Source: a virus. From it: a DNA stretch of 64,000 bases. The position numbers and the translations under genes are program-made. The stretch lies in IMG/VR virus record IMGVR_UViG_3300035138_000114. One strand, 5' to 3'. Of the stretch, positions 31,800 through 51,475 are shown piece after piece. The notes under the pieces were generated by a model that saw only the letters and a list, made by a program, of their open reading frames with translations, searched no databases and was not told where the DNA came from. The number at the start of each line of letters is the position of its first letter. Positions within the stretch are counted from its first letter, which is position 1.

Positions 31800-31905
31800 C
31801 TTTCAATCTCTAAAAAGAGTTTGGAGGAAGAGTCACACTTCCCACGCTGGACGTGAAATACGCCACATAGCCGGTCAGCCTATAGGCTTTCCGGGTACTT
31901 GTAAT
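31800..31905 (-). ncRNA. stand-alone natural single-guide RNA scaffold (copy A)
   Basis: 32-nt core identical to the tracrRNA; ends in CTCT-TTTT-AGAG-ATTGAAAG. Confidence 0.7.
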
Positions 31906-31909
31906 TCCC

Positions 31910-31939
31910 ATATTACATACAAGTAATATCTGTTGTCAA
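31910..31939 (-). promoter_or_regulatory. sigma70-like promoter of copy A
   Basis: TTGACA-18 nt-TAATAT, same layout as the tracrRNA promoter at 40441-40470. Confidence 0.6.
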
Positions 31940-38517: not shown

Positions 38518-38889
38518 TCATTCTCCCTCCTGGTTTTCTTCTTGTAGCGGGCACCAATAGTTTCTCAAGAACTGGGCAAAAGTTGTCGAAATACAGAAGT
38601 TAATAACAGGCGAAGCCGGGATGGTTCTCATCTGTTTAACCTCTCCCCCAGTTTTATTAAAGGTTTCAATGTCAAATCGGGAATGTGCCCGCCGATTTGT
38701 TAAGGAAATGACTCCTAAATGTTTCCATGTAAATTTAGGAGATTCAAACAATAGTTCCACAAGTGCTTGTGAAAAAGCCCCGATTACCTTCTTGACCGTC
38801 CCTCGGGGAAGGCCAGTTTTTTCCATTATCCTGTCAACTACCGGTTTACTTGCTTCCCATTTTTTGGGATAAATTGGAATATCCTTCAT
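38518..38889 (-). CDS. HU/IHF-like DNA-binding protein
   Basis: V..I..KTGL....V..VI..F...L.E.L, LG.I....R, IPA...I.F pattern. Confidence 0.65.
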   Translation of the reverse strand: MKDIPIYPKKWEASKPVVDRIMEKTGLPRGTVKKVIGAFSQALVELLFESPKFTWKHLGVISLTNRRAHSRFDIETFNKTGGEVKQMRTIPASPVINFCISTTFAQFLRNYWCPLQEENQEGE

Positions 38890-39515
38890 AATGTTTTATT
38901 CCTTTCTTTCGCTTTACTTTCAGTCTCTTTCAGAGATTTCTTTCTTTTGCGTAAACGGTGTAACCCGCTGTCCTCGATACGTCTTACCCATTCACGGCAA
39001 ACTGAAAAAATCCGGCTTATTTGTTCTAACGTGTAGCCTTTATCCTCTCCAAATGAAGACAAAAGCCGATACCGGGCTAAAAGGCAATAAATCTCTCTGT
39101 TAACTCCGGGAGTTTTTTGCCAGTATTGACAAGTCCGGTAAGGACACTGTTCTTTCCGAAATTCGGCATGGATTTTCTCAATGGGTAATAATAAAATTTC
39201 ATCTCTCACCGCCCGTGAACACTTGTAAATAATAGAAACCCATGTCCGGTTTTCCCGTTTCATCAAAGGTTCTTTCTGTCCGAAGTTCAGAGCAAAAAGA
39301 TCAACATAAAGCACATTGAAAGAAGTATCTAAAGTAATAGGAAGTTTCCCTAGTCTAAACGGATTATATTGATCTTTGGATAATTCAATCGTGTCTTGTG
39401 TTGTATAGTCAATGATTATGTAATTTTGGAAGCTCAAATGTGTCCGTGTCGGGAGAGAACATATTTCTTGGTTTCTATTAAGAATCATTTTAAAGAAGTA
39501 TCCAAAGTCTTTCAA
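38886..39515 (-). CDS. sigma70 region-4-like HTH protein with Cys motif
   Basis: YTLEQIS.IFSVCREWVRRIE..GL.RLR; CPYRTC..W...C; start may be ATG at 39488. Confidence 0.7.
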   Translation of the reverse strand: MKDFGYFFKMILNRNQEICSLPTRTHLSFQNYIIIDYTTQDTIELSKDQYNPFRLGKLPITLDTSFNVLYVDLFALNFGQKEPLMKRENRTWVSIIYKCSRAVRDEILLLPIEKIHAEFRKEQCPYRTCQYWQKTPGVNREIYCLLARYRLLSSFGEDKGYTLEQISRIFSVCREWVRRIEDSGLHRLRKRKKSLKETESKAKERNKTL

Positions 39516-40128
39516 TCCCTTTCAGAGATTTATTAGCTTTTCTACATGGAAATAAACCGGGAACGCCTAACAGACCAATATCTTTCAATCCCTTTCAGAG
39601 ATTTATTAGCTTTTCTACGCACGTTAAGGAGAAAATTATGAACCAATTACTTCAACCTTTCAATCCCTTTCAGAGATTTATTAGCTTTTCTACCAAATCT
39701 ATAATCTGGAATCTGCTATCTATCAGCGGCTTTCAATCCCTTTCAGAGATTTATTAGCTTTTCTACTTGGGCGTCCTGGCGAGGGCGCCTTTTTTATGCC
39801 CCCTTTCAATCCCTTTCAGAGATTTATTAGCTTTTCTACGCGATTGTTGACGGGCAAACAGGGGATATTCTGGTACTTTCAATCCCTTTCAGAGATTTAT
39901 TAGCTTTTCTACTCAATGACGGGCTATTCCCGTCAACGGTATGGGACTTTCAATCCCTTTCAGAGATTTATTAGCTTTTCTACTCAACCGGGCTTCCTGG
40001 ACAGTTAACGAATCCCGGTCCTTTCAATCCCTTTCAGAGATTTATTAGCTTTTCTACAGCATTACAAGCAGAATTTGCCGGGTATGAGAAGCTTTCAATC
40101 CCTTTCAGAGATTTATTAGCTTTTCTAC
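39509..40128 (-). CRISPR. CRISPR array: 9 identical 37-bp repeats, 8 spacers of 34-38 bp
   Basis: Repeat on - strand GTAGAAAAGCTAATAAATCTCTGAAAGGGATTGAAAG; + strand starts 39509, 39582, 39657, 39730, 39803, 39876, 39947, 40021, 40092; orientation inferred from the ATTGAAAG 3' end. Confidence 0.98.
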
Positions 40129-40335
40129 TGCTTGTTTCTATCTGCCCGGTATCACGTAAGTCAATTTCCTGTTTCCGAGCACCTGGCACAAATCTCTAAA
40201 AATGCTGTCAAAGAACTATAAATTTTGTCTTTTTAAGGGTACAAATGCCTTATATATAGTCTCCGAGCAATCATTTTGTCTTAGCCATGTTTGTAGGCAG
40301 ATACAGAATGTTGCTTTGTCAGCATCCCCTGCTCG

Positions 40336-40436
40336 GCAATCTCTGAAAGCGTTCGGAGGAAGGGAAAACCCTCCCACACTGGACGTGAAATACGCCACAT
40401 AGCCGGTCAGTATCATACTTTCCGGGTACTTGTAAT
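40336..40436 (-). ncRNA. tracrRNA (copy B)
   Basis: Anti-repeat CTTTCAGAGATT (40338-40349) complementary to repeat AATCTCTGAAAG; promoter TTGACA(40465-40470)-18 nt-TAATAT(40441-40446). Confidence 0.8.
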
Positions 40437-40466
40437 TCCCATATTACTTGTATGAAATATCCGTTG

Positions 40467-42302
40467 TCAAGAAATTTCTGATAATTTTATTATTTTAGGT
40501 GAGCGTAAACAAGCAAGGAATTGGCTACGATCCCCTTGCCAATTTCCGCTTTTTACGGCGATATTAGCGGCTCCGTTACAATCGGCGTTAACATGAGTCC
40601 CGTTATTTGTCTGGTATAGTCCTCGTTTCCTGCGTTTTTTTAATGATTTGGAAAATGTATGGAGTTCGTTGCTTCCATCATACGTAGGAATCTCCATATA
40701 ATCCAAAAAAGAACATAAAGATGTGAAACTTTCTTCATGTTCAATATAAGCTATTCCTTCCGGCTCGCAGGCATATTTTAGATAATTCCGTAACTGTAAA
40801 AACGGGATTTGCACAAAATTTTGAGTATTCCGTTTCCCTATATTTACACCTTGTTTCCATCCGACGTTCACCCCAACAACAACCGTATTGATGTGATGCT
40901 TAACGCAGTAATCTACAATATATCTGGCAACCTGTTGCATGATATATTCAATTTTGGCATTCCGGCGACGGGTGATTCGGTAAAGCTGCCGTGACTGTGG
41001 AAATTTGTGAGATTGAGTCGAAAACGGGACAACCAATTGTTGCCATTGCTTCTGTTCATCTCCTGTTAAATGACATGCTAAAATGAGTTTTTGCGCTGTG
41101 GCAAAAGACTGTCCACAAAGTTGTTTATACCGTAATAATAGGTCATCAGGAAGAACGGTTTGTAAAAGTTGGATACTCTCTTCAGTTACACTATATTTTG
41201 AACGAGGATCTTGATCTGCCATACATTCCCGTAATCGGGCACATTCTTTATTCCAAAACCAATTGATTGATTTGACAGAAGATCCTTTGAATAAAAACGC
41301 GAATGGAGTCTCCATGTCCACACAGGCCGCAAGATTATTAACCCCAAGATCAATTCCCATTATCCTTATGCTGTCAGGCGTTGTAGTTGTCGGAACAGAT
41401 GCTTGGTATGTCAATGATACCGAAAACTCTTCACTCCGAAATTTCGGAGTAATTTGAAGTTTCCGAATATCATTAAATTGAAGCCACTCAGGGATCGGGA
41501 TACAAATTGGTGTAAAGCCTTTATCTTTAAGCGTTTTTGAAAGGCTTAGGCGTAATGTTCGGTCATCAACTTTAACGAACCCATTCCCTATTTCGGCGAT
41601 AATTCGTCCGAATGGTGGAGCTTGATCACTTCTATGGTTTTCGCCTAAATAATGCTGGTCTTTTTTATATCCTGGAATTCGTGGAGCATCACGATACTTC
41701 TTCTTTTTTTGCTCTGCCCGAAGCTGTAAGAAAGAAAGGTGGTGCTTCTGCAAATATTTCCAGATACTTTTATCATAATTCCGTATATCTTTAACAGCTT
41801 GATCTACCATATAATGGGCGGTTTTGCTAGATATTTCAAAGTGAACCCGTGTAGACTCCCGGTGTCGAAGCACTTTTGAATCTAACGTATAGGTTGTCAG
41901 AAACCTATCGTAATATTGGCAAGATTCAAAGATTTTCTCTCCATACACGGTCATTTCAGACCGTGATAAACACTCTTTGAGGTGTTCTTCAAACTCTGAA
42001 CGGAATACCTTGCGCTTGGTAATTGGACGCAATTTAGCCCGTATTTCTTCAGGAACCGCCAGTTGTGCGATCTTATTTTTTGACAATGAATATCGGAGTG
42101 TTTCAAACTGCTCTTTACATGGGCATACCAGGCAATCAGGGCAGTCAGGGATTATTGACGGGTTAATATAATGCTGCCGACAACACCATAATGCCGCATT
42201 ATAGATTCTTGCGGCATGGATACAGAGTAGTGTTAAATGTTCCCGGTCTTGTTTCGACAGATTTGTTAAGGCAATTTTAATGGTTCTTGCTGCTAATTCC
42301 AT
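40467..42302 (-). CDS. compact TnpB-derived type V CRISPR effector (Cas12-like, 611 aa)
   Basis: RuvC-I IMGIDLGVNNLA; RuvC-II position VVVGVNVGWKQ; NFVQIPF..L..L.Y; EESFTS; RuvC-III NADCNGAANI; adjacent tracr and array. Confidence 0.85.
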   Translation of the reverse strand: MELAARTIKIALTNLSKQDREHLTLLCIHAARIYNAALWCCRQHYINPSIIPDCPDCLVCPCKEQFETLRYSLSKNKIAQLAVPEEIRAKLRPITKRKVFRSEFEEHLKECLSRSEMTVYGEKIFESCQYYDRFLTTYTLDSKVLRHRESTRVHFEISSKTAHYMVDQAVKDIRNYDKSIWKYLQKHHLSFLQLRAEQKKKKYRDAPRIPGYKKDQHYLGENHRSDQAPPFGRIIAEIGNGFVKVDDRTLRLSLSKTLKDKGFTPICIPIPEWLQFNDIRKLQITPKFRSEEFSVSLTYQASVPTTTTPDSIRIMGIDLGVNNLAACVDMETPFAFLFKGSSVKSINWFWNKECARLRECMADQDPRSKYSVTEESIQLLQTVLPDDLLLRYKQLCGQSFATAQKLILACHLTGDEQKQWQQLVVPFSTQSHKFPQSRQLYRITRRRNAKIEYIMQQVARYIVDYCVKHHINTVVVGVNVGWKQGVNIGKRNTQNFVQIPFLQLRNYLKYACEPEGIAYIEHEESFTSLCSFLDYMEIPTYDGSNELHTFSKSLKKRRKRGLYQTNNGTHVNADCNGAANIAVKSGNWQGDRSQFLACLRSPKIIKLSEIS

Positions 42303-42771: not shown

Positions 42772-42875
42772 CTCTGGCGCTCAGAATACCCTCCAAAATC
42801 GTTTGAAATTTCTTCCGAATATCTTCATAGGGGTTGGCGTTCCGAGTCCTTAGAATTGAAATCTGGTCGCCATTT
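42772..42875 (+). repeat. R2 dispersed repeat (degenerate)
   Basis: CTCTGGCGCTCAG...CATAGGGGTTGGC...TCCTTAGAATTGAAAT. Confidence 0.45.
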
Positions 42876-42919
42876 TTACGTCTGGACATTACTATACCCG
42901 AAACCTGGGCTTTCGTCTA

Positions 42920-47568: not shown

Positions 47569-47644
47569 TGGAGATTGGGGCGGGATTTGAACCCGCGATA
47601 AGGGATTTGCAGTCCCCTGCCTTAAGCCACTTGGCGACCCAATC
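47569..47644 (-). tRNA. tRNA-Cys(GCA)
   Basis: GATTGGG/CCCAATC acceptor stem, U discriminator, encoded CCA, anticodon loop CT-GCA-AA, GGTTCAAATCC T-arm. Confidence 0.93.
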
Positions 47645-50834: not shown

Positions 50835-50970
50835 CTTTCAATCCCTTTCAAAGGTTCTTTATTTGGCAATCTCTGAAAGCATTCGGAGGAAGGGAAAACC
50901 CTCCCACACTGGACGTGAAATACGCCACATAGCCGGTCAGCTTATAGACTTTCCGGGTACTTCTTATCCC
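50835..50970 (-). ncRNA. stand-alone natural single-guide RNA (copy C: tracr fused to repeat 3' half)
   Basis: Nearly identical to the tracrRNA, then a 17-nt loop, then TGAAAGGGATTGAAAG (exact last 16 nt of the CRISPR repeat). Confidence 0.8.
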
Positions 50971-51475
50971 CATAGTTGACAGCCGTGCCCGTATCTAATT
51001 CTGATACCGGGCGTTCCTCTCTATCATAGTCCAGTATGTGGGGTCTCCATTCAAGTTCCTCACCATCAGAAATGTCCTCTTCTTGCATCCGATCCGTCCG
51101 TTTTAAGGTAAACCAACGGGTACACTCGTTTTCCTGTTCTGTCCGGATCGAAGCGTTTTTCATCAGGCGATGGAGCCCCATTGTTGCCTCAATTAATGTG
51201 TCATATTCAAATTTTTCCGATCCATAATCCACGCTGGTCATAATGACCGTATGCGGCTGTAAAAGCTCCTCTTCTGCCTGAAACCCGAATTGTACCGGGG
51301 TTTCTGCCTTTAAGATTTCTTCTGATGTGAAAACTTCCTTCTTTCCATGTAAGATTTGTTTATTGACGGGCGAAGCTCCCCAAAAAACTGTTATTTGTTC
51401 TCCTGTTTGATCCCATTTACGGTGAACTTCGTAAACTATCCCGTCATAAATGAATTTTGTCCCGATTAAATTCAT
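50942..51475 (-). CDS. hypothetical protein; 3' end overlaps sgRNA copy C
   Basis: AAGGAG RBS; stop lies inside the scaffold. Confidence 0.55.
   Translation of the reverse strand: MNLIGTKFIYDGIVYEVHRKWDQTGEQITVFWGASPVNKQILHGKKEVFTSEEILKAETPVQFGFQAEEELLQPHTVIMTSVDYGSEKFEYDTLIEATMGLHRLMKNASIRTEQENECTRWFTLKRTDRMQEEDISDGEELEWRPHILDYDREERPVSELDTGTAVNYGDKKYPESL

Follow-up and report, generated by a model that had tools for sequence, protein, structure and literature searches.

The CRISPR array in the window, the stretch of 64,000 nt of virus DNA that was analysed, appears to be the guide source of a phage-borne type V system whose effector is derived from TnpB. The best explanation in our opinion, to which we give about an even chance, is a TranC-like system that targets DNA and is stocked in trans by an I-D-type adaptation module of the host, with a mild, PAM-driven antisense lean of the guides and a favourable small sample. 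The initial annotation had described the spacers as polarised, with crRNAs antisense to target transcripts, and had connected the array with a host type III/Cas6 system or with an effector that needs transcripts or RNA. The observation as a whole was partly confirmed; its interpretation is partly supported, and the type III part of it weakly supported.

Anatomy of the locus and its effector

The window belongs to a 132-kb IMG/VR virus record (95% complete) in which terminase, portal, capsid and tape-measure genes are present. On the minus strand, the gene for a 611-aa protein comes first; a promoter-like site, a scaffold of about 100 nt that ends in an anti-repeat, a leader of 209 nt and the array follow it, and then a gene whose product has a sigma-70 region 4 domain:

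40467..42302, minus strand: TnpB-derived effector, 611 aa, by homology and alignment
40441..40470, minus strand: sigma-70-like promoter (TTGACA, 18 nt, TAATAT), 10 of 12 matches, as a consensus match only
40335..40440, minus strand: tracrRNA-like scaffold with a 12-nt anti-repeat (40349-40338) and an invariant TTTCA core
40129..40337, minus strand: leader, 209 nt, identical to that of the sister phage at 180 of 209 positions
39509..40128, minus strand: CRISPR array, nine identical 37-nt repeats with a 7-bp hairpin and the end ATTGAAAG, and eight spacers of 34-38 nt
38886-39488: gene with a sigma-70 region 4 domain, 3' of the array

The identical 37-nt repeat was found in four arrays, that of the window and those of the sister phages L067, L069 and L072, which hold 24 distinct spacers and thus show spacer turnover. 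Logan contig L070 (positions 1-510) has the tracr sequence, the leader and one repeat, after which the terminal guide comes immediately; it may be a spacer-free strain or an assembly collapse and, as it holds no spacer, was left out of the spacer counts. A degenerate repeat-like sequence of 26 nt (23/26) lies in array orientation at the end of the sigma-70 region 4 gene (window 38917-38942). Rfam gave no match at the gathering threshold and a weak CRISPR-DR25 likeness only. A tRNA-Cys gene is located at window 47569-47644 on the minus strand.

No cas1, cas6 (PF10040) or RAMP (PF03787) gene was found in the phage genome (95% complete). So the array spacers must come from Cas1-Cas2 of the host.

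The effector scored above the cut-off of NF040570 and matched PF01385 and PF07282, which makes it by homology a TnpB/Cas12f-like RuvC nuclease. Asp318 (RuvC-I), Glu521/523 (displaced RuvC-II) and Asp574 (RuvC-III) were invariant in alignment A1. It is related to TnpBs of the IS605 type, which are about 400-450 aa long, and compared with TnpB (~435 aa) it carries about 180 extra residues, as insertions. Neither of the two nearest TnpB relatives with contigs read has an array. The PDB sequence search matched AsCas12f entries only, and the Cas12f2 model gave 32.9 bits against a cut-off of 450. The AlphaFold model of the effector, with pLDDT 44, was too poor for a fold search.

A partial protein on a 1.5-kb ENA contig (P0146) showed 37% identity to the effector over 350 aa, and is the only relative seen to share its insertion, about 65 aa long, that separates RuvC-I from the bridge helix. 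Five more TnpB-like genes were recognised in the phage genome from N-terminal sequences (C1 1-769, 44202-45251, 71523-72692, 92971-94119 and 123709-124824), one of which adjoins an IS607-like TnpA. In L067, a copy of a dispersed element of about 125 nt stands between the effector gene and the tracr promoter (L067:5283-5411) and the C-terminus of the effector is altered; the element resembles window positions 2151, 3280, 9119 and 24715.

TranC, including the phage-borne CauTranC9, and the V-U/V-F Cas12 systems that recently arose from TnpB share with this locus a TnpB-like RuvC effector, a tracrRNA, a short downstream array without cas1/cas2, the location in a phage and the splitting of the omegaRNA 3' stem into anti-repeat and repeat (PMC10691335; 10.64898/2026.03.27.714800). 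In this phage we found the TnpB-homologous RuvC effector with D-E-D, the array directly downstream and, at the sequence level, the tracrRNA anti-repeat. It differs from those systems in its effector of 611 aa, whose TnpB clade of origin has the RuvC-II glutamate displaced, and in the coexistence of several mobile fused single-guide copies. No report of a spacer strand lean was found in the passages compared (PMC10691335; 10.64898/2026.03.27.714800).

Guide orientation, fused copies and a candidate target motif

The proposal that crRNA is made from the minus strand is well supported by four independent grounds in the sequence: the promoter-like site, the tracr anti-repeat, the fused scaffold copies and the trailer spacer shared between sister arrays. 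The promoter hexamers are kept at copy C and in the sister while the intervening bases vary. The anti-repeat and the 3' half of the repeat form a duplex (-21 kcal/mol), and the scaffold is conserved with compensatory changes in six copies. Three more scaffold copies are present in this genome and one in the sister phage, all of them fused, so that scaffold, terminal stem and ATTGAAAG are followed by flanking DNA as the guide; TnpB omegaRNA has the same layout, with the guide 3'. The arrays of L069 and L072 have just the spacer farthest from the effector in common, so the far end is old and new spacers enter at the leader side. The consensus fold favours the cas strand (-23.0 vs -18.9), and the repeat folds a Cas6-type hairpin on the crRNA strand only. 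Single-sequence folding was equivocal as strand proof, and a search with a 16-mer of the scaffold returned 43 matches, at chance level.

Repeats with the end ATTGAAAG had been considered typical of type III systems. In each fused copy, TTG of this end pairs with the scaffold, and its TGAAA is complementary to the invariant TTTCA of the scaffold core, where a pseudoknot may form from pairs that are invariant and thus without covariation support. The repeat end pairs with the nuclease's own tracrRNA and terminates the fused single-guide copies. It is part of the guide scaffold of a type V nuclease and therefore not diagnostic of type III.

Minus-strand transcription of the array would start at the promoter where the effector gene ends and pass through the tracrRNA and the leader. 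The anti-repeat, which pairs with the 3' half of the repeat, would rebuild the one-piece omegaRNA fold, and the nuclease would bind, and probably cut, double-stranded DNA on the 3' side of a short motif, for which two sites tentatively give (T)GTC. The fused copies and the sequence after the last repeat are as follows:

50835..50977, minus strand: stand-alone copy B, in which the scaffold runs on into the 3' half of the repeat (a natural single guide), 143 nt, 5' flank TGTC
31800..31939, minus strand: stand-alone copy C, which has a promoter-like site of its own and ends in ATTGAAAG
genome C1 about 104510-104630 (L017:19510-19630), minus strand: copy D, the fourth scaffold copy, outside the window, with a perfect terminal hairpin
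42870..42891, minus strand: empty site for the sister's copy E, with TGTC (42888-42885) immediately 5' of E's guide sequence
39492..39508, minus strand: guide-like sequence of 17 nt that follows the last repeat and has its match 170 nt further downstream, on the same (sense) strand
39319..39335, minus strand: self-match of this terminal guide inside the sigma-70 region 4 gene, 5' flank CCTATT, not TGTC

Copy E lies at L067:2717-2850, where this phage (window 42870-42920) has an unrelated segment of about 30 nt that ends in TGTC. The guide of copy E in L067 would match this phage, and the insertion was imprecise at its left junction. In IS605 elements, the insertion motif is the target motif of the nuclease (PMC13565253), so the TGTC at copies B and E is a TAM candidate, and from these two sites we tentatively propose TGTC as the target motif. 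GT-type motifs are found on the antisense strand of this phage's genes at a fraction of 0.56-0.60, and such a skew would produce 56-60% antisense guides without involvement of RNA.

The whole region of copy B is missing from L071. The guide of copy D starts exactly at the ATG of an 81-aa gene. The counterpart of copy C in L069 (L069:8535-8612) is cut off before the anti-repeat and its promoter is changed, which means that orphan copies decay. The terminal 17-nt self-match is exact in L069, L070 and L072 and has one mismatch here, with a different reading frame; it is possibly a self-regulatory guide or an old duplication.

Four of the five fused or terminal guides (B, D, E and the terminal 17 nt) read in the sense direction of local transcription. 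They are unable to pair with mRNA and so would act on DNA only, which goes against the earlier idea that the effector needs transcripts or RNA, as does spacer 4 (see below). It is highly improbable that the effector targets RNA or is activated by it, in the manner of Cas12g or Cas12a2, and that only antisense spacers work. Cas12g uses a tracrRNA, a trait that would be common to both, and the antisense lean and the ~180 residues beyond TnpB would also suit such an effector. The matches in NCBIfam and PDB sequence searches were to TnpB and Cas12f and none was to Cas12g or Cas12a2, which is a weak test for convergent function; in addition, a DNA-style 5' motif stands at two guide sites, and at least four spacers are sense.

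Strand of the spacers in the window and in sister phages

Open frames were found in 93% of shuffled spacers and in 94% of true antisense 36-mers, and seven of the eight spacers are open on both strands, so open reading frames were rejected as strand evidence. The peptides that the initial annotation had read from the spacers were translated correctly, but their evidential value is nil. Because open frames are uninformative, we trained periodic Markov and codon models on phage genes, with cross-validation (78-82% accurate on 36-mers). Accuracy was about 80% on held-out 36-mers and on the genes of a distant relative; the models were trained on the phage and not on spacer targets, and the antisense direction was picked after seeing the window data. 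The spacers with their log-likelihood ratios are as follows:

39546..39581, minus strand: spacer 1 (trailer end, oldest), antisense, +1.7 to +2.9
39619..39656, minus strand: spacer 2, gene junction on the plus strand (stop, RBS, ATG), guide antisense
39694..39729, minus strand: spacer 3, antisense, +2.1 to +3.3
39767..39802, minus strand: spacer 4, intrinsic terminator on the plus strand, guide antisense with its 5' end beyond the U-run
39840..39875, minus strand: spacer 5, antisense, +2.2 to +3.5
39913..39946, minus strand: spacer 6, hairpin-rich, strand ambiguous, -0.1 to +1.5, folding in the top 3%
39984..40020, minus strand: spacer 7, hairpin-rich, sense, -1.1 to -1.8
40058..40091, minus strand: spacer 8 (leader end, newest), antisense, +3.8 to +4.8

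The models took the plus strand as sense for spacers 1, 2, 3, 5 and 8, weakly for spacer 6, and the opposite for spacer 7. Six to seven of the eight guides in the window were called antisense to mRNA (P for random strand 0.004-0.03; 0.066 with spacers 2 and 4 left out). The signal comes from codon order, and base composition was ruled out as its source.

The two control elements described earlier on the plus strand were both present. Spacer 2 contains the RBS and start (AAGGAG, 6 nt, ATG) and, in addition, a stop codon, a motif of about 0.5% of genome 38-mers per strand; its RBS style is that of this phage's own gene starts, one of which it matches at 27/38. Spacer 4 holds a terminator-like hairpin and T-run on the plus strand only (about 0.15% of genome 36-mers are alike), and its guide begins past the U-run of the terminator and would therefore be a poor RNA target. 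An excess of hairpins in the window spacers (P 0.05) was absent from 15 sister spacers (P 0.36).

The sister phages L067, L069 and L072, with the identical repeat and an effector of 97% identity, provided 16 new distinct spacers for an out-of-sample test. Eight to nine of the nine new spacers of L067 were antisense with the Markov models (P 0.035-0.055 as a prior test). L069 and L072 together had seven, of which three were antisense and three were sense (-1.6 to -4.6) under every model; the trailer spacer shared by these two arrays scored weakly sense. An antisense fraction near 1.0, as read from L067 alone, fell once L069 and L072 were added. Over the 16 out-of-sample spacers, 11-12 were antisense with the Markov models and 9/16 with the codon model (score-sum P 0.11-0.24), with a best-fit antisense fraction of 0.72-0.76 (90% interval about 0.4-0.94). 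All 24 spacers gave 16-18 antisense and a best fit of 0.82-0.86 (90% interval about 0.55-0.97; P 0.007-0.05). A fraction of 1.0 was 0.9-1.7 log units below the best fit with 24 spacers and 1.6-2.3 out of sample. Fractions of 0.55-0.65 were 0.6-2.4 log-likelihood units under the best fit near 0.83 (24 spacers), and the probability of at least 17/24 is about 0.11 at 0.6; that of at least 11/16 is 0.16, 0.23 and 0.31 at true fractions of 0.55, 0.60 and 0.65. By these models the guides probably have an antisense lean of uncertain size, which is a lean and not a rule: the claimed polarity stands in the window and is incomplete in the sister arrays.

It is very unlikely that there is no strand bias and that the window reflects chance in eight spacers together with classifier noise. 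The out-of-sample P values, the 3/7 of L069 and L072, the codon-model count and the training on the phage would agree with this, but the P over 24 spacers, the signal in codon order, the result of L067 and the strong calls, which run at about 11 antisense to 4, are against it.

Under the preferred explanation of a DNA-targeting system, the lean would have two parts. The template strand of these genes holds more GT-type motifs, which would give the 56-60% antisense guides, and the eight spacers of the window would be a favourable draw that drew attention. Against it stand the 8-9/9 of L067 alone with the Markov models, the higher best fit over all 24 spacers and the absence of any protospacer from our searches.

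Interference with DNA could also depend on orientation, by a roadblock or by polymerase stripping, so that selection keeps the guides that pair with the coding strand and RNA is no target; we regard this as quite unlikely. The TnpB-derived TldR repressors stop elongation only if they target the antisense strand and the TAM end points to the promoter, and the geometry is the same here (10.1101/2023.11.30.569447). Two of the eight spacers lie on control elements (RBS with start codon, and terminator). A role in binding only is hinted at by the self-matching terminal guide of 17 nt, although its own geometry is the opposite, sense one. This effector has the RuvC triad, which TldR and Cas12m lack, and the lean out of sample was not significant by score-sum.

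Proposed host supply of spacers and the comparison with class 1 systems

A search for protospacers of the array spacers found none. IMG/VR scans were empty for spacer 5 (wobble pattern) and for spacers 1+7, 3+8 and 2+6 (union patterns), and a blastn comparison of two arrays with phages and plasmids gave chance matches only. Apart from one RBS-style likeness, no full-length spacer match of at least 70% turned up in the phage's own genome or in about 100 kb of sister contigs, and peptide matching of the spacers was uninformative.

Looking for the same repeat in host genomes, as had been suggested, we found the exact repeat in none of 185,579 species genomes nor in the viral collections, and ten metagenome matches were single and partial. 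In a relaxed search of the 185,579 genomes, the hairpin family of the repeat was found as arrays in cyanobacteria only, at 23-25/37 identity, and five genomes with the nearest cyanobacterial repeat family have I-D and/or III Cas10. The repeat agrees with Microcystis I-D DR1 at 21/37 positions, 16 of them within the last 22 nt; with III-B repeats it agrees at 11-14 only. In Microcystis this repeat family occurs exclusively with type I-D (PMC4428289), and the Cas4 of type I-D picks out GTN PAMs together with spacer lengths of about 35-36 nt (PMC5896167). The mode of spacer length in our arrays is 36 nt, in a range that III-B spacer lengths overlap.

The phage array shares with type I-D of Microcystis (DR1, PMC4428289) and Synechocystis (PMC5896167) the 37-nt repeat, the hairpin with a 3-nt loop before the ATTGAAA end and the spacer range of 34-40 nt with a mode of 35-36, and the GTN PAM fits the tentative TGTC. 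It differs in that the phage has no I-D genes, the 5' part of the repeat is different (21-25/37) and the host is probably not cyanobacterial. No HIP1 site was found in the phage genome, so the host is probably not a cyanobacterium and the link from repeat to subtype is borrowed from another phylum. Look-ups with IS and QueC gave no informative host.

In the preferred explanation, a class 1 Cas1-Cas2(-Cas4) module of the host would insert spacers at the leader, and type I-D is the suggested supplier from the likeness of the repeat and the fit of GTC to the GTN PAM. Counting against it are the two sites on which TGTC is based, with the imprecise left junction of E, the borrowed I-D link, and the cleavage of I-D repeats by Anabaena III-D Cas6 as well (10.1101/2020.04.14.041012).

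This last point leads to the main idea of the initial annotation, which is dual use of the array. Host Cas6 would cut the hairpin and leave the 8-nt ATTGAAAG handle, the same crRNAs would go into a type III complex of the host or into an I-D Cascade that binds RNA, and antisense spacers that add protection would be retained, lifting their fraction to 70-85%. We judge this unlikely. The claimed host link holds in so far as the repeat is of the class 1, Cas6-hairpin kind and the array would be filled by the host, but not for type III, since the repeat is nearer to I-D than to III-B.

Antisense spacers in natural arrays average 65% for type III, 60% for I-A and 55% for I-B (PMC8482600), and nearly all mapped spacers in natural III-A arrays of S. 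thermophilus are antisense (PMC8860593). In type III, selection during interference produces the strand bias, and acquisition does not (PMC7515739, PMC8860593). The type III average fits our data, and 55-60% fits too. Type III has no PAM requirement, and the tentative TGTC at two fused-guide sites would speak for a PAM here. The phage array shares with type III arrays the antisense lean and some spacers from hairpins, a terminator and a gene start (PMC8482600; PMC8860593; PMC7515739), but its locus has no Cas6 or RAMP and holds a type V effector and a tracrRNA instead. Dual use is favoured by the Cas6-type hairpin on the crRNA strand only, by the best fit over 24 spacers and by the antisense lean of type I arrays where type III co-occurs (PMC8482600). 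A cyanophage repeat gets cut by host Cas6 enzymes, III-A adaptation prefers hairpins, terminators and gene starts (PMC8860593), comparable with spacers 2, 4, 6 and 7, and I-D Cascade binds ssRNA (PMC9123187). However, the hairpin excess was not seen in the 15 sister spacers and sense-scoring spacers persist, including the shared trailer spacer. The stem also has a U.G wobble at a tracrRNA-paired position, and the tracrRNA would compete with the hairpin.

Other virus-borne arrays (cyanophage N-1, mini-arrays and IV-A3 in trans; PMC11656645, 10.1101/2020.04.14.041012) likewise have a host-like repeat without adaptation genes and a likely use against rival elements, while this phage differs in having its own effector and tracrRNA.

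Taken by itself, the strand lean is modest, and there are ordinary explanations for it. [quoted passage not shown] It is somewhat unlikely that one array serves two effectors, the phage nuclease and an RNA-sensing complex of the host, or a nuclease with transcript dependence, with 75-85% of the guides kept antisense; in the literature compared, we found no description of a type V array with such a fraction. The locus also suggests how usable spacers might reach type V systems that lack cas1: if the target motif of a TnpB (here tentatively TGTC) agrees from the outset with the GTN PAM of a host I-D system, the TnpB could adopt the I-D repeat and be supplied at once.

The targets would be elements that share the word usage of the phage, probably rival phages or plasmids of the same host. 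The spacers carry the 5-mer signature of the phage, with a mean z of 1.41 against 1.32 for its own 36-mers. CCGGG and ACGGG are enriched in the genome and GGCC, GCGC and CTAG are scarce, a signature that the spacers share. TGACGGG occurs 79 times in the whole genome, against about 10 expected from base composition, and this signature is also seen in spacers 5 and 6.
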